From: a virus
Direction: 5' to 3' (one strand)
UHGV virus genome: UHGV-1367038
Length of the DNA: 52,981 nucleotides
Made by a program: the position numbers and the translations under genes. Under the pieces are notes generated by a model. That model did not search any database. It worked only from the letters and a program-made list of their open reading frames with translations, and was not told the DNA's origin. Shown piece after piece: positions 22,849 through 47,846 of this stretch. Positions within the stretch are counted from its first letter, which is position 1; every line of letters starts with the position of its first letter.

Positions 22849-23027
22849 AAAACGAAATTAAAGATCTGCAAATTGATATTCAGCGCGACGAGCGTGATTT
22901 AGAAACGGTCAGACAAATCCAGGCTTTCCACATGCGAGAATTACTCGCGCTAAAAGAGTTTGAAAGGAAGTTAGTGCAAGCTATTTCTGATCGCAAACGC
23001 CTTGTTGCTCGTTACGGGGGCAAATAA
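22845..23027 (+). CDS. Hypothetical protein
   Basis: 60 aa ORF, coupled. Confidence 0.45.
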   Translation: MKNEIKDLQIDIQRDERDLETVRQIQAFHMRELLALKEFERKLVQAISDRKRLVARYGGK

Positions 23028-23755
23028 TGAATTTAGAGTCAATTCTAAAATTCCACTTTCCTAAATCGCCGCGATTATCAGACGAAAGCCGTGGTACATC
23101 CCCTGATGCGCTTAATACTACTGATGCGCTTACCGCAGCTGGTATGGCGCAATCTCGCGTAGAGCTTGGATATAGCGCTTTTTTGGGAAAGATGGAGCTA
23201 TCGCAAGCCGAAAAACACAGGGCCGTAGTTTTGCTTACAGAGCGTTTAAGAGCTATGGCAAAAGATTACGAATACGTCATGGAACTGGACGAGGAAAAGC
23301 GCAATGATTTTATTATTCTTGTTGCCGTTTTCGCGTTTCGGGATTACTGCCAGAGTGCAGCGACCGAAAAAGTTTGCCCTAAGTGCTGCGGTCACGGGCA
23401 TTTACCAAATCAATATTGCAAATACACATCAACAATTTGCGCACGGTGCGGCGGCAAAGGCTACGTTAAAAACCATTGCCAGCGGTGCAAGGGCCGTGGC
23501 GAAGTACCGGATAAAGCAGCCAGCGAGGCAGCGGAAATGCCAGTTTTCAGAACGTGCCAGCATTGCGGCGGGCGCGGGTACTCGCGTTTCCCTGTAGATC
23601 TTGTCCGGCAGGCGGTTAATCAGCTTGTTTTTCCGGTAAGCCGATCAACATGGTGGAAGAAATACAGGGTTTTCTATGAGGACGCCATAGCTGAGCTATT
23701 CAAAGAAGAAGCCCGCGCGGAAAGCGAAATCAAGCGAGTGACGAGAGGTGAATAA
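23027..23755 (+). CDS. Putative late-gene regulator (Q-like antiterminator candidate) with DnaJ-type CxxCxGxG zinc fingers
   Basis: CPKCCGHGH, CARCGGKGY, CQRCKGRGE, CQHCGGRGY; position after NinG-RusA as in lambdoid phages. Confidence 0.4.
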   Translation: MNLESILKFHFPKSPRLSDESRGTSPDALNTTDALTAAGMAQSRVELGYSAFLGKMELSQAEKHRAVVLLTERLRAMAKDYEYVMELDEEKRNDFIILVAVFAFRDYCQSAATEKVCPKCCGHGHLPNQYCKYTSTICARCGGKGYVKNHCQRCKGRGEVPDKAASEAAEMPVFRTCQHCGGRGYSRFPVDLVRQAVNQLVFPVSRSTWWKKYRVFYEDAIAELFKEEARAESEIKRVTRGE

Positions 23756-23958
23756 TGGATAAGTTGGAAATAAACGATCAGTTCGCTGTTATCTTATTCG
23801 AAGATAAAACAGGCGGCGCATGGTGTAAGAAAGTCACTGGTGCTGAAGCGCGTTTAATATTAGGCATGGCAAGCGCATTAAACGAAGGCGAATTACCAGC
23901 AGTTCCCATTGAACCAGTTCACATTTACGGACGGAAGAAAGACGATGAAAATAATTAA
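23755..23958 (+). CDS. Hypothetical protein
   Basis: 67 aa ORF. Confidence 0.45.
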   Translation: MDKLEINDQFAVILFEDKTGGAWCKKVTGAEARLILGMASALNEGELPAVPIEPVHIYGRKKDDENN

Positions 23959-24292
23959 CATTGGGTGGTTGTATTGCGAAAACTGCGACGAAGACGGCAT
24001 GGTCGTTAAGACTGAAAAAGGCTGCGGCCTCTTTCTGTATCAAGGCGATAAGTTTGTTTGCCCGCGATGCGGTGGTAGTGGTGAAATAGAAATTATTGAA
24101 GATAGCGCAACAGCGCCAGATCCAGAGCGCATTGTTCTTGATGAAAAAATAAAAATTCATCCTGATTTATTACAGCAAATCATCGATCACGTATCGGCAG
24201 CAGCAATCTACAGCAATAACAATTATCAGCGTGAAATTAACGTCAAACGTGCGCTTGAGCAATATTTTAAGGGTGACGATGATGAAGCCTAA
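23945..24292 (+). CDS. Small zinc-ribbon protein
   Basis: CENCDEDG...CPRCGGSG. Confidence 0.5.
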   Translation: MKIINIGWLYCENCDEDGMVVKTEKGCGLFLYQGDKFVCPRCGGSGEIEIIEDSATAPDPERIVLDEKIKIHPDLLQQIIDHVSAAAIYSNNNYQREINVKRALEQYFKGDDDEA

Positions 24293-24551
24293 ATTAAAAG
24301 AACATCTATTTGCAAAGCTGGTTAATGACCTGACATTATCCGCGCGGTTGTGTCGTGATACGCAACAATTAGGGGCGTGGATAGCAAGGGATTTAAGAAA
24401 ATACATTGAGCCGGGCGGACCAGGCGATGAAATGACGATGGATAAGGCCATCAAGCGCCGGACGGCTGAATGGTCAGTGAGTAATACCGGATTAACCGGA
24501 TACATCGAAGGCTACAACGACTGCTTACAGGATCATAGCGATGGCAAGTAA
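24282..24551 (+). CDS. Hypothetical protein
   Basis: AAGGGTG RBS; 89 aa. Confidence 0.45.
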   Translation: MKPKLKEHLFAKLVNDLTLSARLCRDTQQLGAWIARDLRKYIEPGGPGDEMTMDKAIKRRTAEWSVSNTGLTGYIEGYNDCLQDHSDGK

Positions 24552-24849
24552 AGATCTACATTTAAACCTGAAAGGAGAATACTTTTACGCTATCCGGGCG
24601 GGAAAGAAGGTGGAGGAATACCGACTTTATAATGACTACTGGCGTAAACGCCTGGAATGGCGGGAATATGAACGCCTGATCATTAAGCTGGGCTATCCAG
24701 CCAGCCACGAAACACACCGGATCATAAACCTGCCTTATTTCGGGTATGAAGTGAAAACTATCACACATCCATTGTTCGGCCATGATCCTGTAAAGGTATT
24801 CGCAATTAAGTGTGATGTGAATTGGATGTTAAGGTGGGGTGAGCAATGA
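24541..24849 (+). CDS. ASCH-domain-like protein
   Basis: GEYFYAIRAGKKVEEYRLYND resembles ASCH GxKxxExR. Confidence 0.45.
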   Translation: MASKDLHLNLKGEYFYAIRAGKKVEEYRLYNDYWRKRLEWREYERLIIKLGYPASHETHRIINLPYFGYEVKTITHPLFGHDPVKVFAIKCDVNWMLRWGEQ

Positions 24850-25064
24850 AAAGTAACCGTAAACGCCTGGTAAGGGCATATGACAAAGCGTTAAAGGCTT
24901 TTGATGATCTGCGACACAATAAGCGACAGCGCCGTAAATGGGCGCGAATGCTTGTTCATGAATGGCATTATCCTGATGCTGCCTTGATAGAAGGCGCACC
25001 GCCATTTACACAGGAACAAGCCGACGAAGTAGCTAGCGATAACGTTTATTACATGATGTGGTGA
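24846..25064 (+). CDS. Hypothetical protein
   Basis: 72 aa ORF. Confidence 0.45.
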   Translation: MKSNRKRLVRAYDKALKAFDDLRHNKRQRRKWARMLVHEWHYPDAALIEGAPPFTQEQADEVASDNVYYMMW

Positions 25065-25068
25065 CAAT

Positions 25069-25434
25069 ATGAAAATAATCATTGATTACCTTTGCCATAT
25101 ATTCAATACAATTTTTGGTTTTTATCAACATCCGTTTCTTAAAGAATGGGATGCGATGCTAAACGAAATCCTCGACAAAGGATTAATAATGGAGGTTGAC
25201 GAGCTTACAATAAAAATTAATTATGATGGTGAAGAATATCAAATTTGGGTGGGTAATAGATGGTATGCATACGCACATATTTATTCACTAAATGGAAAAC
25301 TCCTAACTAATAGACAGGAATTCCGACCGCGATTCCGCACAATGCGCCGACTACATAACCTGCATATGAATCTATTTGAAGACCAGGAAGCACGGGAATT
25401 ATTCAAGATCTATGGAGATAAATCATGGAGCTAA
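25069..25434 (+). CDS. Hypothetical protein
   Basis: 121 aa ORF. Confidence 0.5.
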   Translation: MKIIIDYLCHIFNTIFGFYQHPFLKEWDAMLNEILDKGLIMEVDELTIKINYDGEEYQIWVGNRWYAYAHIYSLNGKLLTNRQEFRPRFRTMRRLHNLHMNLFEDQEARELFKIYGDKSWS

Positions 25435-25655
25435 AAATCTGGCAGGCTATCGACGTAGTTGATAATGAATTATCTATGTTTGCCACTGATGGAAAGCGCG
25501 TGGTGATCGCTACATGGACGCGCAACCATGATGATATTGTTTTTCGTCGCAAGGCTGCGGAGTGGCTTTTCTCTGATGAAGGCTACACGATGAACATCAC
25601 ACAGCTTGCCAGAATGAAGGATGAAAAGCTGGTAGATAGTTACACGACTGCATAG
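25425..25655 (+). CDS. Hypothetical protein
   Basis: 76 aa ORF. Confidence 0.45.
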   Translation: MELKIWQAIDVVDNELSMFATDGKRVVIATWTRNHDDIVFRRKAAEWLFSDEGYTMNITQLARMKDEKLVDSYTTA

Positions 25656-25665
25656 TGGGGCAAAT

Positions 25666-25899
25666 ATGCGTATCTATGAACACAAGCGGGATAAAACCCG
25701 CTTTTTTGTTCGTGCTGGCGTGGCGTACCAGTATCACGAATGCGGATATATCGAGGCGCTTGCTTACGACCTTGATTTTGAACAAGAAAAAGAATGGTTT
25801 GACTTTAAGATTTACCGGAAGCGCAAGCCGACGCGCGACGAGCGCCACGCTATTCGTGACTTTTTAATCAGCATTGACCGGTGGGAGGCAGAAGAATGA
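25666..25899 (+). CDS. Hypothetical protein
   Basis: 77 aa ORF. Confidence 0.45.
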   Translation: MRIYEHKRDKTRFFVRAGVAYQYHECGYIEALAYDLDFEQEKEWFDFKIYRKRKPTRDERHAIRDFLISIDRWEAEE

Positions 25900-26123
25900 A
25901 AGTTAAATTCTTGCACGATCACGGATACCCGTCATTTAAACAGGTTGTTGGTAAGGTCGTTAATGTCGTTCATAGCGATGATGTTACTTGCATGATTAAT
26001 GGTGCTGATCTCATCGCCGCTGGTGCTGACGACCATTACATCAATCCTGCTTGGTCGTATACGTTCAGCCTTGGTGATTTCGTCGGGGATAAGGGGCGCG
26101 GGCTTGAGATTGTAGAGGATTAA
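25896..26123 (+). CDS. Hypothetical protein
   Basis: ATGA overlap; MKVKFLHDHGYPSFKQVVGK. Confidence 0.45.
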   Translation: MKVKFLHDHGYPSFKQVVGKVVNVVHSDDVTCMINGADLIAAGADDHYINPAWSYTFSLGDFVGDKGRGLEIVED

Positions 26124-26127
26124 CAGT

Positions 26128-26343
26128 ATGGACGTTTACGAGGATCTATACCTCCAGACAAATAGCCGCATTTTTTATTTTCTGAAAAACAGCGTCGTAT
26201 ATCGCAGCGACGACGGGGTGATAATGAAAGAGTGGCTATTTAAGAGCAAAGACCTACTCGATGATCTGGTTTTTGCCGGAATATTCCGTAAACGTCCGGC
26301 TAACCTGGAAGAAGAAATGCTGATCGACGAGGTATTGAGATGA
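26128..26343 (+). CDS. Hypothetical protein
   Basis: 71 aa ORF. Confidence 0.45.
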   Translation: MDVYEDLYLQTNSRIFYFLKNSVVYRSDDGVIMKEWLFKSKDLLDDLVFAGIFRKRPANLEEEMLIDEVLR

Positions 26344-26591
26344 AAATGAAAGTTAACTATTTCAGGGCAAAAGACAAGGCAACAGGGAAACGGGTAGTTA
26401 TCCTGGTTAATGAGGCCAATTATATGTTTGTTCTCCAGCCGTGGTGCATAGCTGACTATAACGATGATTATCGCCGTCATGCAGCGCGGCGGGCGGTCGG
26501 CATGAAAGGCTGGCAACCGCGCGACATGCTTAATTATTGCGACTGGAATCTTATAGCAAAATACACGGTCGATTATAAAGGGGTTTTCTGA
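26340..26591 (+). CDS. Hypothetical protein
   Basis: 83 aa ORF. Confidence 0.45.
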   Translation: MKMKVNYFRAKDKATGKRVVILVNEANYMFVLQPWCIADYNDDYRRHAARRAVGMKGWQPRDMLNYCDWNLIAKYTVDYKGVF

Positions 26592-26593
26592 TT

Positions 26594-26809
26594 ATGTTTG
26601 CAAGATGCGTTTATTCTGATACTTCGTGCTTCACTACTGGCGAACTATATAGCGTTGATCTTCTTAATGGGTGCAAGCGCGGCGCTGGCGGTATTCATTA
26701 TGTAAAAGATAATGATGGCGATGCGTGGCAATTTTACGGAGATCATGCAAAAGGTGTTGTTAAGGGTAGTTTTGATAATCGTGTAATGGCGCGTTTTGTT
26801 AAGTGGTGA
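26594..26809 (+). CDS. Small protein, paralog family member 1
   Basis: C.YS...F..G.LY.V ... DNDGDAWQFY pattern shared with neighbours. Confidence 0.5.
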   Translation: MFARCVYSDTSCFTTGELYSVDLLNGCKRGAGGIHYVKDNDGDAWQFYGDHAKGVVKGSFDNRVMARFVKW

Positions 26810-26818
26810 GGTGAATTT

Positions 26819-27031
26819 ATGCAGGTTAAATGTTCATATTCAAGCAATGACAGTGTTTTCACGATTGGGCGTATTTATGACGTTCACATTGTTTATGGCA
26901 ACGAAAATCACACAATGAGTAATTGCCTTGCCTTGATTGATAATCATGACGAAATATGGATATTCAGGCCAACTTATCGTGGCGGAGAAATATCAGGTAT
27001 TGAATTTGCAGCCAGCTTTGAACGTTATTAA
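26819..27031 (+). CDS. Small protein, paralog family member 2
   Basis: KCSYSSNDSVFTIGRIYDV ... DNHDEIWIF. Confidence 0.5.
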   Translation: MQVKCSYSSNDSVFTIGRIYDVHIVYGNENHTMSNCLALIDNHDEIWIFRPTYRGGEISGIEFAASFERY

Positions 27032-27040
27032 GGGGTAAGC

Positions 27041-27292
27041 ATGAAGCGATTATATTTTGATGTAGTGCAGACGCGCGACCGCGACATATTCGATGAGGGG
27101 AAAGTTTATTGCGGTGTTCAACTCCACGGCGCACCGGGCGGCGAGGCGATGGCGATAACTGGTGATGATAATAAGGTTTATTTTGCTTATGTCACACGCT
27201 TTCCGCACACTGACAAGGTTTATTATCGCATCGTGCATGACTTCCAGGGCGTAGCTGTATTTTGTGACCGCGAAGGCAGTAAACCGGAATAG
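27041..27292 (+). CDS. Small protein, possible divergent paralog
   Basis: DEGKVYCGV ... GDDNKVYFAY. Confidence 0.45.
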   Translation: MKRLYFDVVQTRDRDIFDEGKVYCGVQLHGAPGGEAMAITGDDNKVYFAYVTRFPHTDKVYYRIVHDFQGVAVFCDREGSKPE

Positions 27293-27541
27293 GTGATGGT
27301 TATGAGTCGGAAACATAGATACCAGTGCACGTACTCACGATGCAGTGCGTTTTTTAAGAATGGCAAGATCTACGATGTTGGCGCGGCATTGGTTGACGCA
27401 AAGAATCAGGAATATATTTACGCCATTACTGACGACCAGGGCCAGCTATGGCGATTTTATAAGATGGGGTACGGCACGGCGCTTGTTTATGCGCGTGCTG
27501 GTGGTGGCGCTTTTGCTGCATTTTCGTATGTAGGTGCGTGA
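27293..27541 (+). CDS. Small protein, paralog family member 3
   Basis: QCTYSRCSAFFKNGKIYDV ... DDQGQLWRFY. Confidence 0.5.
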   Translation: MMVMSRKHRYQCTYSRCSAFFKNGKIYDVGAALVDAKNQEYIYAITDDQGQLWRFYKMGYGTALVYARAGGGAFAAFSYVGA

Positions 27542-27544
27542 AAA

Positions 27545-27763
27545 ATGATTTTAACGTGTAATAGATCGGAATTAGGTTGTTTTGAGGAAGGCGTACAGTA
27601 TGCGGCTGAAAAACCGATGGGGTTGTCTCCTAAATTCCCGTTCATCGTCGTGACTGACACTTACGGTCACTTATGGTACGCAGAGCCGCTGTGCGGTATT
27701 GGTCGTTATGTTGTCCGTAGCTCTGACGGTGCGATGAAGGTTAATTTTACGGAAGAAACATAA
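27545..27763 (+). CDS. Small protein, paralog family member 4
   Basis: TCNRSELGCFEEGVQY ... DTYGHLWYA. Confidence 0.5.
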   Translation: MILTCNRSELGCFEEGVQYAAEKPMGLSPKFPFIVVTDTYGHLWYAEPLCGIGRYVVRSSDGAMKVNFTEET

Positions 27764-27782
27764 ATGTGATCTACCCCGCAAA

Positions 27783-27826
27783 GTTTACAAAATGGCATTG
27801 TTCCGGCAGTGCCATTTTGTTATAAA
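27783..27826 (+). promoter_or_regulatory. Conserved inverted-repeat element ACAAAATGGCA-N12-TGCCATTTTGT followed by TATAAA
   Basis: Homologous to elements at 44124..44166 and 47170..47217. Confidence 0.45.
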
Positions 27827-27861
27827 GAAGCTGAAGAGAGAACGATGCGGAGGGTAGAAAA

Positions 27862-28140
27862 ATGAAACGCTGGATTAACAAAGAAGTCGAATCTCGCTTA
27901 AACGCATTTTGGGAGATGGTGGAGAAAGAAGACCCAGCACACGCTGCAAGCCCTTATCTGAACAACATTGAATATCACTACATTGCAGCAAACAACGCGG
28001 AGTTCGAGGAAGAAGGAGGGGCAGACAAGTTTGCACAAAGTAACGCATTCAACAACGCAAACGAAATGATGATGGCAGTTATCGAACAGGCAGAGGAAGA
28101 CTACGAATGCAAAGCACTTGAATTTGCACGCATGGCATAA
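27862..28140 (+). CDS. Hypothetical acidic protein
   Basis: GGAGGG RBS; 92 aa. Confidence 0.5.
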   Translation: MKRWINKEVESRLNAFWEMVEKEDPAHAASPYLNNIEYHYIAANNAEFEEEGGADKFAQSNAFNNANEMMMAVIEQAEEDYECKALEFARMA

Positions 28141-28149
28141 GGGGGAACC

Positions 28150-28290
28150 ATGAACGCTAACGCTAAATATCCGGCCTGGGTTTTTGAACTGTATGCTCGC
28201 TACTTTGAATTGCTGGAACCAGGTGAAGAAGCATTGAGCATTGACGAATACGCGGAGTGTTTAGGATTTAAAGGAGACGAAGAAGAATAA
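28150..28290 (+). CDS. Small acidic protein (46 aa)
   Basis: GGGGGA RBS; similar in pattern to 29142..29273. Confidence 0.35.
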   Translation: MNANAKYPAWVFELYARYFELLEPGEEALSIDEYAECLGFKGDEEE

Positions 28291-28330
28291 AACACGGGGC
28301 CGGATGGCCCCATCAAACGGAGTATAAATT

Positions 28331-28585
28331 ATGGTTGTGATCAGACTATGGCGCGGAGTTAGTAGGCTTGATGGTATATACAGCCGCGTAATTGAGGATG
28401 TTAACAATAGTCGGTTTTATGAGCTTGAATACAGCGAAAAAAGGGAGAATGAATATTTGAACGAATCGACACCTATGTGGTGCAAAGTGGCTGGCCTTTC
28501 TTCACTTATGCGTCACGGGTTTTATACAGATTATAACACGCTAACAGATGCCGAACTGGTAGCAACTCTTTACGAAGGAGAATAA
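28331..28585 (+). CDS. Hypothetical protein
   Basis: 84 aa ORF. Confidence 0.45.
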   Translation: MVVIRLWRGVSRLDGIYSRVIEDVNNSRFYELEYSEKRENEYLNESTPMWCKVAGLSSLMRHGFYTDYNTLTDAELVATLYEGE

Positions 28586-28588
28586 ATA

Positions 28589-28912
28589 ATGACTAAATTT
28601 ATCAGCGTTAAAGTTTTCCGTGGAACTATTCCAGAAGGTGAGAAATACGGTGAATTCGGTGGAATGACTGGAGCATGTTTCCGTGTAGCAACGGAAGACG
28701 ACGATCATGTTAAATGCTTCCACGTATCGGAGCCGCCTTTTAGTCCAGAGCATCTTGAAGACCCTGGTAAAATTAAAATGTTCGTCTTCGCATCACTAAC
28801 GATTAATCCTTACCCTGATCCTGATGTCGAATTGATCGGGGCTGAAATGGTCGCTGAATACAAAATAACCCCGGCAGACAACGGAGACTCTAAAATTGAG
28901 CGCATCAAATAA
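28589..28912 (+). CDS. Hypothetical protein
   Basis: 107 aa ORF. Confidence 0.5.
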   Translation: MTKFISVKVFRGTIPEGEKYGEFGGMTGACFRVATEDDDHVKCFHVSEPPFSPEHLEDPGKIKMFVFASLTINPYPDPDVELIGAEMVAEYKITPADNGDSKIERIK

Positions 28913-29120
28913 ACCTTACAAAATCCGCTGCAAAGGCAGTTATGACGGATTCACTCAGGGGTGTGAATACCTGGGCCACATTGGACATGGCCCGTTCGGT
29001 GAATTAGGGATGAATACGATAGACGACGACGGCGACAACAGGACGCTTGATCTTGATTCTGATGATTTCGAATACATCCCGCCAGTAACTTACCGCGACG
29101 TCGATGAATTTCCGGCATAA
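28896..29120 (+). CDS. Small protein, possible divergent paralog
   Basis: RCKGSYDGFTQGCEY ... DDDGDNRTL. Confidence 0.45.
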   Translation: MSASNKPYKIRCKGSYDGFTQGCEYLGHIGHGPFGELGMNTIDDDGDNRTLDLDSDDFEYIPPVTYRDVDEFPA

Positions 29121-29141
29121 CAAGAAGACGAGGACGATTAA

Positions 29142-29273
29142 ATGGAAGAGTGGTATAAAAATCTATTAATCATGTTTCTTGCTGAAAATTGGGCGCTATT
29201 TGAGCGTTTTTGCGATGAACATGGTGAAGACCCTAACGATATTTATCACGATCTTGGGGGCGAAGATGATTGA
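29142..29273 (+). CDS. Small acidic protein (43 aa)
   Basis: GAGGA RBS; MEEWYKNLLIMFLAENWALFERFCDEHGEDPNDIYHDLGGEDD. Confidence 0.35.
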   Translation: MEEWYKNLLIMFLAENWALFERFCDEHGEDPNDIYHDLGGEDD

Positions 29274-29466
29274 ATTTCTTATCGCTGCAATTATCTTTCT
29301 TTATATCGCTGGCGCTATATTAATGTCTTGCTTTGTTAGAAGTAACGATCTCGGCCCGGCTTACCTTGAAGTTACTTTTTGGCCTGTAGCAGTCTTTTAC
29401 GCTTTTGTAGACGCTACGCGCATACAGATCATGCGAGCTATTAAGGAGCGTAAAAATGGGAAATAG
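29266..29466 (+). CDS. Small membrane protein
   Basis: GGGGG RBS; MIEFLIAAIIFLYIAGAILMSCFV; the listed ORF from 29179 is probably an over-extension. Confidence 0.45.
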   Translation: MIEFLIAAIIFLYIAGAILMSCFVRSNDLGPAYLEVTFWPVAVFYAFVDATRIQIMRAIKERKNGK

Positions 29467-29653
29467 CGACCATAAATATGATGGCGTTTATCAGTCATTG
29501 GTGTCACGCGCTTATTATCGACTTGAAGGTGAACACGTAATGATGCGATTACGCCAGTGTGATCCGTGGCATGAAACGATTTTACCTGTGACAGCGAAAG
29601 AAGTTATCGCGATGTTTAATCACGGATACTGGCGCAAGGTTGGTGATTTATGA
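29456..29653 (+). CDS. Hypothetical protein
   Basis: 65 aa ORF. Confidence 0.45.
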   Translation: MGNSDHKYDGVYQSLVSRAYYRLEGEHVMMRLRQCDPWHETILPVTAKEVIAMFNHGYWRKVGDL

Positions 29654-29823
29654 ACGAGATCGAAGATGGTATCTATGTGCATAACTTATTTGATATTACT
29701 TACTTGCTGAAAGAAGAAAAGGTTTTTGTTATGTCGAGTGGGCATCCTTTCTGGACTTTCGTAAACATGGATCGTGAACAGATGCAAATATTGCTTGATA
29801 ATGGCCTGATAAAGAAGAAATAG
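29650..29823 (+). CDS. Hypothetical protein (57 aa)
   Basis: ATGA overlap with upstream stop. Confidence 0.4.
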   Translation: MNEIEDGIYVHNLFDITYLLKEEKVFVMSSGHPFWTFVNMDREQMQILLDNGLIKKK

Positions 29824-29889
29824 AAACCATAATCGCGCATAAAAAACAAATAGATTAAAATACTTCCTAACAATGCGAAATTGTAATTA

Positions 29890-29912
29890 CCCGGCACCGC
29901 GCCGGGTTTTTG
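29890..29912 (+). terminator. tR'-like terminator about 20 nt upstream of holin
   Basis: CCCGGC-accgc-GCCGGG then TTTTT. Confidence 0.7.
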
Positions 29913-29931
29913 CTTTGTTGGAGGTAAATCT

Positions 29932-30132
29932 ATGTTCGACAGAATACGGGAGGCGTGCGCGTATGTGACTGGGGCCGTAACTGCTTTTTTCGGCGCGATA
30001 ACCATCAATGACATTGCCGTCTTTGTGGGTATCTTATCAACCATTGGCACATTTGCCGTTAATTATTACTTCAAATCACAGGAGAACAAGCGAGCGCAAG
30101 AGGAACACGACGCGCGAATGGGGAATAAGTAA
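29932..30132 (+). CDS. Class II holin (phage 21 S-like pinholin candidate)
   Basis: 66 aa, two TM segments, charged C-terminus; GGAGG RBS. Confidence 0.6.
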
Positions 30133-30133
30133 A

Positions 30134-30625
30134 ATGATTAGCCAATCGCTGAAAAACAAAATTGTTGCGGCGGCGGCTGGTGGGGCGATCGCTATTGCGG
30201 CGGTGATGATAAAAGATCTTGAAGGCGTTGAGTATGAGCCATACAGAGATGTTATCGGTGTTTACACAATATGTTATGGTCACACCGGAAAGGACATTAT
30301 GTTGGGTAAGACTTACACGCAATCAGAATGCGATGCTTTGTTAAATAAAGATCTCCACAAAACCGCAAAAGCGATCGACCCCTATATTAAAGTCGAAATA
30401 TCAGATTTTACCCGCGCGGCGCTTTATTCATTCGCCTATAACGTAGGCGCTACAAACTTCAAAACATCAACCTTATTGAAGCTACTTAATGACGGCAAGA
30501 AATCAGAAGCGTGCGCACAGCTTAAACGCTGGATATACGCTGGCGGCAAGAAGTGGCAAGGCCTTGTTAACCGCCGTGATGTTGAATATGCCGTTTGCGA
30601 ATGGGGTGAAACATGGACAAGGTAA
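30134..30625 (+). CDS. SAR endolysin (T4-type lysozyme, GH24)
   Basis: N-terminal Gly/Ala-rich signal-anchor-release segment; E..D..T catalytic pattern ([22 protein letters not shown]). Confidence 0.8.
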
Positions 30626-47293: not shown

Positions 47294-47647
47294 ATGCCTG
47301 AAGTGTTCCGATGGACACCACAAAGAAGCTACAGCGTAAACAGTGAGCCTAACGTGTCTGTCATTAAACTGGGTGATGGGTATGAACAGAGGCAGACAAA
47401 AGGGATTAACCCTTTACTTGATAGCTATACGCTGGTCTTTAAGGGTACGAGCGCAGGATGCGGTGACGCCGGAAACGTAGCGCTACAGGTTGACGCATTT
47501 TTAAGAGCACGTTGCGCGGTCGAGGCGTTTTACTGGACTCCATCAACGGATGGAGTTCAAAGGCTTTTTGTATGCCGAAAGTGGAGCATGACGAAAGACG
47601 GCCCGGTATGCACGCTGAATGCAACGTTTGAACAAGTTGTCAATTAA
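47294..47647 (+). CDS. M: Minor tail protein M-like
   Basis: 117 aa; DGYEQR motif and C-terminal ATFEQVVN resemble lambda M. Confidence 0.8.
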   Translation: MPEVFRWTPQRSYSVNSEPNVSVIKLGDGYEQRQTKGINPLLDSYTLVFKGTSAGCGDAGNVALQVDAFLRARCAVEAFYWTPSTDGVQRLFVCRKWSMTKDGPVCTLNATFEQVVN

Positions 47648-47660
47648 TGGAGGTGTCAAT

Positions 47661-47846
47661 ATGTATGCTATTTGTGTAGTTGACCGCACTGGCGCTTTTA
47701 CATTGTTTGACGACTACGAGATCAACGACCTTACTGTAAAAGCTGATAATGGTGAGACCTGGTATCTTCATGACGTTGGTGACGGGTATGTTGGGTGCAG
47801 GTCGAGAGAAGGCAAGGAAGTTTTATTCTTACTTGATGGCGTATAA
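47661..47846 (+). CDS. Hypothetical protein
   Basis: GGAGG RBS; 61 aa. Confidence 0.45.
   Translation: MYAICVVDRTGAFTLFDDYEINDLTVKADNGETWYLHDVGDGYVGCRSREGKEVLFLLDGV

Follow-up and report, generated by a model that had tools for sequence, protein, structure and literature searches.

Six small genes in the genome of a temperate coliphage encode paralogous proteins that are dispensable, evolve under purifying selection, and have given rise to natural in-frame hybrids. The genes lie between positions 26594 and 29120 of UHGV virus genome UHGV-1367038, a stretch of 52,981 nucleotides (nt) that we call the window. We propose that they represent a lineage-specific tandem expansion of one small barrel domain, and that the copies are free-standing protein-binding modules directed against host or defense proteins in lytic growth; in our estimate, this proposal as a whole has about an even chance of being correct.

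The window is a member of the mEp021 (mEpimmI) group, whose phages have been reported to be as common as lambdoid phages in human feces (PMC11893012). Its region from 25400 to 30000 is 82 to 87% identical to MagusPhagus, mEp010, mEp044, mEp554, mEp013, mEp021, and mEp515 but only over 31 to 75% of its length. In mEp021-like phages, this part of the genome is annotated as hypothetical proteins only. A Q-type antiterminator gene (23027-23755; PF03589 is found on its homolog in related contigs) is followed in the window by about 27 small, tightly packed open reading frames (ORFs) on the plus strand, which extend to the holin gene (29932). Endolysin and Rz-like genes come after the holin gene. The paralog family sits in the middle of this array.

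Evidence that six array genes are paralogs

We named the six genes A (26594-26809), B (26819-27031), E (27041-27292), C (27293-27541), D (27545-27763), and F (28896-29120); all are on the plus strand. An initial annotation had proposed at least four paralogs here, and probably six, and this proposal proved right. All-against-all blastp, with the 19 ORFs between 25425 and 29823 as a local database, connected A with C (E value, 2e-5), A with B (1e-4), and B with C (1e-4), and it connected E with F at 0.015. We built a family profile for each gene from its relatives in a 5.8-billion-protein collection and compared the profiles by using hhalign. The matches were A-B (96%; E value, 1e-9), A-C (94%; 1e-7), B-C (90%; 2e-6), A-D (71%; 4e-5; 53 collinear columns), C-E (45%; 2e-4), and B-F (21%; 1e-3). 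Families of neighboring, unrelated ORFs scored 18 or less, with the single exception of a separate pair, 29456/29650. Against 40 column-shuffled alignments, the z scores were 6.3 for D, 6.1 for E, and 3.5 for F, and in each case none of the 40 reached the observed score. Finally, all 448 ORFs of the window were scanned with hidden Markov models (HMMs). The best nonself matches of every family HMM were other family members, and the top nonself match of the E HMM was C. We conclude that A, B, and C are clear paralogs, that D and E are remote members, and that F is a weaker member. Ten other ORFs of the region (25425, 25666, 25881, 26128, 26340, 27862, 28331, 28589, 29456, and 29650) scored 17 or less when considered as additional members, and we rejected them.

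A superfamily alignment of 38 sequences was collinear throughout. Residues F13 and Y19 do not vary, and G16 hardly does (≥90%). The alignment also contains a cysteine in strand β1 (not in E), a [D/N]-x-G-x-x-[W/Y]-x-[F/A] hairpin, and a C-terminal strand with the pattern x-[R/A]-[F/I/V]-x-x-[F/Y/W]. The shared pattern originally described is present at the given coordinates and goes beyond chance; its N-terminal cysteine (residue 5; M-x-x-x-C) is found in five of the six copies and is absent from E. We rejected a lipoprotein reading of this cysteine, which would call for a signal peptide and lipobox, because no hydrophobic signal segment precedes it. In some relatives, the position of A is taken by a protein that we call type M. 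Its 92% score against the superfamily profile is inflated because the alignment includes a hybrid of M and F; independently of this hybrid, the match is 26% (E value, 7e-4).

Paralog A (71 amino acids [aa]) matches phrog_31142 with an E value of 1.8e-44, and B (70 aa; variable loop at residues 29 to 36) and C match the same PHROG weakly (9e-5 and 7e-5, respectively). D (72 aa) and E (83 aa) have no PHROG match. The ORF of C opens with a GTG at 27293, but the true start is likely the ATG at 27302, since orthologs begin with MSR(K/N); this would give a protein of 79 aa, as in the orthologs. F (74 aa in the window) matches phrog_25234 (1.9e-45). It differs from its counterparts in mEp010 and KKa019 by a GAA-to-TAA nonsense change (29118-29120) and has lost the acidic tail of its orthologs, EQEDEDD, the codons of which can still be read in frame to 29141.

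Some copies of the family are decaying. A frame at 27345-27533 (plus strand) overlaps paralog C, and the database variants P0023, P0030, and P0033 of C are frameshifted into it, ending in ...DFIRWG..LLLRFRM. In E. coli strain PAR (locus L012, ~1736-1950), a frameshift splits paralog B in two. A seventh, distant member could be a small plus-strand ORF among the tail genes (47619-47846; the likely start is an internal methionine, MYAICVV...), although it is a weak candidate. The A family HMM matched it with an E value of 0.004 (448 ORFs), and hhalign to A gave 71% over only 25 columns; the other family profiles were at noise.

Dispensability, selection, and hybrid formation

We set the window beside 16 related loci, of which 7 are from phages and 9 are from prophages of complete Escherichia coli genomes. 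Gene order does not change among them. Five conserved ORFs are followed by a block with slots for A (or its variant A′, or type M), B, E, C, and D, then by a hairpin, about nine small genes including F, a terminator, and the holin gene. Five of the copies in the window are thus contiguous, with the hairpin at the end of the block, and the sixth lies nearby. The number of family copies per locus ranges from 0 to 6 across the 17 loci. Because mEp021 and mEp515 have no copy and are viable, plaque-forming phages, the family is dispensable and accessory. Its distribution is narrow. The region was found in just 34 of 5426 complete E. coli genomes, none with more than 88% identity, and tblastn detected members in mEp-type phages only. 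Where the protein collections name a source organism, the homologs (45 clusters for A, B, and C; 73 clusters for D, E, and F) all come from E. coli or phage.

All six genes are kept in relatives. We determined the pooled ratio of nonsynonymous to synonymous polymorphism (pN/pS) among orthologs and obtained values of 0.34 for A, 0.30 for B, 0.24 for E, 0.16 for C, 0.33 for D, and 0.21 for F. For comparison, the values were 0.10 to 0.21 for the five conserved upstream ORFs and 0.09 for the holin gene. The ORFs are therefore coding genes under purifying selection, which constrains them somewhat less tightly than their neighbors. In sliding windows, pN/pS rose to 0.6 to 0.8 in codons 26 to 40 of B, 6 to 15 of A, and 56 to 65 of E, but it never exceeded 1; outside codons 26 to 40, B had values of 0.1 to 0.25. 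Amino acid variability in B, measured as column entropy, peaked at residues 29 to 36 and 42 to 52. The initial annotation had suggested that the tandem array reflects diversifying selection. These data do not bear that out, given that gene-wide pN/pS stays well below 1 and that only loop segments rise. They also bear on whether the shared pattern could have arisen by chance, or whether the ORFs are genes at all. Such doubts are understandable for proteins that are very short and have pairwise identities of just 18 to 28%. However, the profile and shuffle statistics, the purifying selection, and the conservation in relatives and in the 34 E. coli genomes refute that explanation, to which we give practically no credence.

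Natural in-frame hybrids between paralogs are present in public protein collections. Three join the N-terminal part of a slot 1 protein to F at the D-x-D-G-D motif: A plus F (P0032), A′ plus F (P0126), and M plus F (P0125). A 28589-type N terminus is joined to F at the same motif in P0132, and M is joined to D at the T-C-N motif of β1 in P0136. Other hybrids involve genes from outside the family: B and a 28331-type protein (P0045; junction, G-R-F-Y-E-L), C and the C terminus of 28589 (P0026 and P0044), and C and a 29456-type C terminus (P0016, which is gp60 of mEp013). In the contigs with P0032 and P0126, the hybrid occupies slot 1 and is directly followed by the genes normally found 3′ of F; each of these two hybrids is therefore a deletion from the middle of A to the middle of F. 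We checked the junction DNA of these two. The A-like and F-like parts overlap at the motif-coding bases by 8 to 14 nt in P0032 and by ~16 nt in P0126. We conclude that the hybrids arise by microhomology-mediated deletion between paralogs. Apart from the shared motif bases, blastn-short found no DNA repeats among the six paralogs of the window, and since they share no other DNA similarity, the duplications must be old. The block evolves in three ways: by gain and loss of genes slot by slot, by replacement of alleles in slot 1, and by microhomology-mediated deletions between paralogs at the D-x-D-G-D hairpin that yield in-frame hybrid proteins. The natural hybrids show a route by which such small domains are reshuffled in the wild.

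Expression of the array and proposed function

Three hairpins on the plus strand mark the region. The first, a strong terminator-like hairpin with a T-run (25684-25703), lies inside ORF 25666-25899, upstream of the block, and relatives have a terminator annotated there. The second (27789-27818) closes the block on the right and is a GC-containing, terminator-like hairpin with a U-rich tract (folding energy, -37 kcal/mol; z = -5.55) that is present in all 14 sources keeping this end of the block (the window and 13 related loci) and absent from 5 sources that lack the family or have a deletion through that point. Relatives' records annotate it as a Rho-independent terminator. The third is an intrinsic terminator hairpin (29889-29907) in a leader of ~90 nt (about 29840-29931) directly upstream of the holin gene. 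This leader, with its terminator, is nearly identical in 17 of 17 loci, whichever gene is upstream. In the record of mEp021, TERM_5 is annotated where this hairpin lies. A terminator t5 is listed as experimentally demonstrated (PMC11893012), and we take it to be the same as TERM_5. The leader resembles a lambda-type late leader and terminator. The late promoter was not located; the sequence just upstream of the conserved leader occurs in two variants that differ in the -35 region. Given the three hairpins, transcription through the array would need antitermination, and we infer that the array genes are expressed only by antiterminated transcription in lytic growth.

A different mode of expression would apply if the genes were morons, expressed from the prophage and benefiting the lysogen through superinfection exclusion or defense against other phages. 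The phage is temperate, the family is present in some relatives and absent from others, as is typical of morons, and a terminator-like hairpin closes the block, all of which would suit such genes. However, there is no room for a promoter of their own, as 2 nt separate the stop codon of the preceding gene from the start of A, and the genes overlap or follow each other closely. A promoter scan showed no enrichment (13 sites versus 15.9 expected), the upstream hairpin at 25684-25703 lies within the same co-oriented array, PADLOC gave no matches, and related small proteins are found in virulent T1-like phages. We consider this explanation quite unlikely. It is very unlikely, in our view, that the copies are small nucleic acid-binding barrels (Sm, KOW, or OB-like) with a role in adjusting the transcription or translation of the phage, as suggested by the frequent binding of RNA or DNA by small beta-barrels and by the location of the genes in the regulatory stretch that separates Q from the late genes.

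Our preferred reading is that each copy is most likely a free-standing protein-binding module. The conserved core would hold the barrel together, and the variable loops or edge strands would bind a host or host defense protein. We favor this role because the family is dispensable and multicopy and combines a conserved core with variable loops; because the proteins have no signal peptide and orthologs of F carry an acidic tail; because unrelated genes and two terminator-like hairpins separate the block from the lysis genes; and because the block is absent from relatives with the same lysis cassette. Even if the proteins proved to have no host target, the assignment would be a useful annotation, although biologically modest.

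Several neighbors of the family deserve mention. Two small acidic proteins, encoded on the plus strand at 28150-28290 (46 aa) and 29142-29273 (43 aa), had been described as a pair. They are outside the family and are not paralogs of each other: their hhalign score (7.7) was below the mean for shuffled alignments (9.7), 45 of 60 shuffles scored at least as well, and they have no PHROG in common. On the minus strand, a GC-rich hairpin with a T-run (28294-28313) is located between the first of these genes and ORF 28331-28585; the 28331-type gene is split in MagusPhagus (locus L003, 4499-4755). A second tandem family, unrelated to A to F, is located just upstream of the holin leader. Its members in the window, 29456-29653 and 29650-29823 (plus strand), are adjacent paralogs (hhalign, 96%; E value, 2e-9), and relatives have one to three copies. 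At the other end of the array, the interval from the Q-like gene to ORF 25425 holds six more small plus-strand ORFs (23755-25434). The Q-like gene directly abuts the 25425 homolog in mEp021 and mEp515, so this segment is another variable insert in the same array. The lysozyme gene (30132-30625, plus strand) encodes an N-terminal hydrophobic stretch, which suggests a signal-anchor-release (SAR) endolysin; its partner would be a small holin with two transmembrane segments. In one related contig (L021, 5064-5585), an HNH endonuclease gene (PF13392) lies between the lysozyme and Rz-like genes.

Predicted fold and comparison with known systems

According to prediction, the family domain (60 to 85 aa) forms an SH3-like beta-barrel with six strands, as in the solved structure of Gp54 of phage Bas11. 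An AlphaFold model of paralog A (predicted local distance difference test [pLDDT] score, 71) is a barrel. Two features of the Gp54 family recur here: the modeled fold has six strands and a prominent β1-β2 loop, and the gene is a small, nonessential accessory gene, with 0 to 6 copies over the 17 loci. Foldseek matched the model to dozens of uncharacterized small proteins among predicted viral structures (template modeling [TM] scores, 0.65 to 0.79), mostly from T1-like and other enterobacterial siphophages and often several per phage. Searches of PDB sequences with the family returned nothing significant. We rejected a beta-propeller identity (RCC1, BNR/GH43-like, or Reg_prop), as the matches involve profile positions 32 to 56 only and are summed over 4 to 11 repeats, whereas each window protein has one such hairpin and is modeled as a barrel. 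The I-D-x-x-G-x-x-W-x-F hairpin matches the hairpins of propeller blades with an E value of 1e-14 when repeats are summed, which we take as a motif-level resemblance rather than homology.

Gp54 (PDB 9AXB; PF25180, "Phage antiviral trigger protein Gp54") is the closest structural relative. It is nonessential and directly binds and activates CapRelSJ46 through the zinc-finger-like antitoxin domain of the latter; in doing so, it unfolds in part and contributes strands to a hybrid beta-sheet (PMC11578894). Its authors speculate that it may serve as an inhibitor of another defense system, and even close homologs of Gp54 do not trigger CapRel (PMC11578894). The link to Gp54 is at the level of the fold only, because there is no significant sequence or profile similarity. 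None of the six proteins of the window and none of the 38 alignment members matched PF25180, and in hhalign comparisons with all of the window families, the Gp54 family scored below 15, with nothing above noise (E value of a forced alignment, 0.17). By eye, the F-K-K-G-I-E-I-T-I and W-S-L-A-G-D segments of Gp54 are spaced 29 residues apart, like F-T-T-G-E-L-Y-S-V and W-Q-F-Y-G-D of A, a suggestive likeness that is not statistically significant. Gp54 also differs from the window family in being a single-copy gene of a virulent T1-like phage and in lacking the β1 cysteine, whereas the window family is a tandem array in a temperate phage.

By analogy, the binding of Gp54 to the zinc-finger-like domain of CapRel by beta-sheet augmentation may serve as a model for how the window proteins bind their targets. 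Since the only characterized protein with this fold directly triggers CapRel, the paralogs are candidate triggers or inhibitors of bacterial immunity, and the six hypothetical genes acquire a testable identity through their link to one fold. The initial annotation had proposed a role in anti-defense or host takeover. That interpretation is plausible: the genes do form a tandem, dispensable accessory family whose closest structural relative triggers CapRelSJ46. On the other hand, no member matched Pfam, NCBIfam, or PADLOC, and neither these libraries nor PHROGs support an anti-defense or takeover activity. A more specific version, to which we attach only a small chance, is that the Gp54-like barrels of the block form a recombining repertoire, inhibit host immune sensors or serve as decoys for them (e.g., for the zinc-finger-like domains of fused toxin-antitoxins such as CapRel), and swap N- and C-terminal halves at D-x-D-G-D to gain new binding specificities. 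If so, it would offer temperate phages a modular route to diversify counter-defense.

At the sequence level, the best relatives outside the mEp group are other Bas11 proteins. We scanned the ORFs of Bas11 (MZ501085) with the family HMMs, built family alignments for its proteins, and compared them by using hhalign. The superfamily HMM matched gp71 (E value, 6e-5), the C-terminal domain of gp48 (7e-5), and gp41 (0.013); the F family HMM matched gp61 (1.4e-6), and the A family HMM matched gp60 (2e-4). In hhalign, the superfamily matched the gp71 family at 90% (E value, 2e-6), and F matched the gp61 family at 91% (1e-6). The best relatives are thus the gp71-like (phrog_9181) and gp61-like (phrog_25234) proteins and the gp48 C-terminal domain; gp61 matches the same PHROG as F. 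These matches tie the family to a wider, unannotated class of small T1-like phage proteins. In Bas11, several such small genes are scattered in the early region, whereas those of the window form one contiguous block.

The gp41 protein belongs to DUF7244 (PF23896), which has been proposed, as a hypothesis without experiments, to be a standalone SH3 of the Drexlerviridae (T1) lysis module (Eremina et al. 2026; PMC13164509). DUF7244 resembles the window family in being small and all-beta, in its location upstream of a holin/endolysin cassette, and in its M-x-V-K-C start and G-x-x-Y motif. The profile link is weak: the superfamily matched the DUF7244 family at 54% (E value, 1.3e-4), A at 24%, and B at 31%. 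In Pfam, no alignment member reached the gathering score; 1 of 38 matched, with an E value of 0.11, and none of the window proteins did. The window family could accordingly be asked whether it, too, supplies auxiliary lysis components, that is, standalone SH3-like proteins that bind the cell wall or modulate the endolysin. Its location upstream of the lysis cassette, the remote similarity to DUF7244, the position of the DUF7244 gene directly before the holin gene in Bas11, and the N-terminal hydrophobic segment of the holin-adjacent endolysin are consistent with this role. However, the family proteins lack a signal peptide and a membrane segment, and A to D are 2.2 to 3.3 kb from the holin gene (F ends 0.8 kb away), with two terminator-like hairpins and 8 or 9 unrelated genes in between. 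In addition, the same lysis cassette occurs in mEp021 and mEp515, which have zero copies, and six divergent copies, one of them acidic-tailed in orthologs, are hard to fit to a single lysis role. We therefore consider a lysis function unlikely and retain protein-binding modules directed against host or defense proteins as the preferred reading.

DUF7244 is present as a single copy immediately beside the holin gene, whereas the window family has multiple copies, with other genes and terminator-like hairpins before the holin gene. Canonical SH3 domains (e.g., the RecD SH3, 5LD2) have five strands and usually occur within larger proteins, and the similarity to them is weak. We conclude that the family adds a new branch, so far unannotated, to a known kind of protein, the small SH3-like or Gp54-like accessory barrels of phages, and that it is set apart by its tandem expansion in a temperate phage and by the documented in-frame hybrids between its paralogs.

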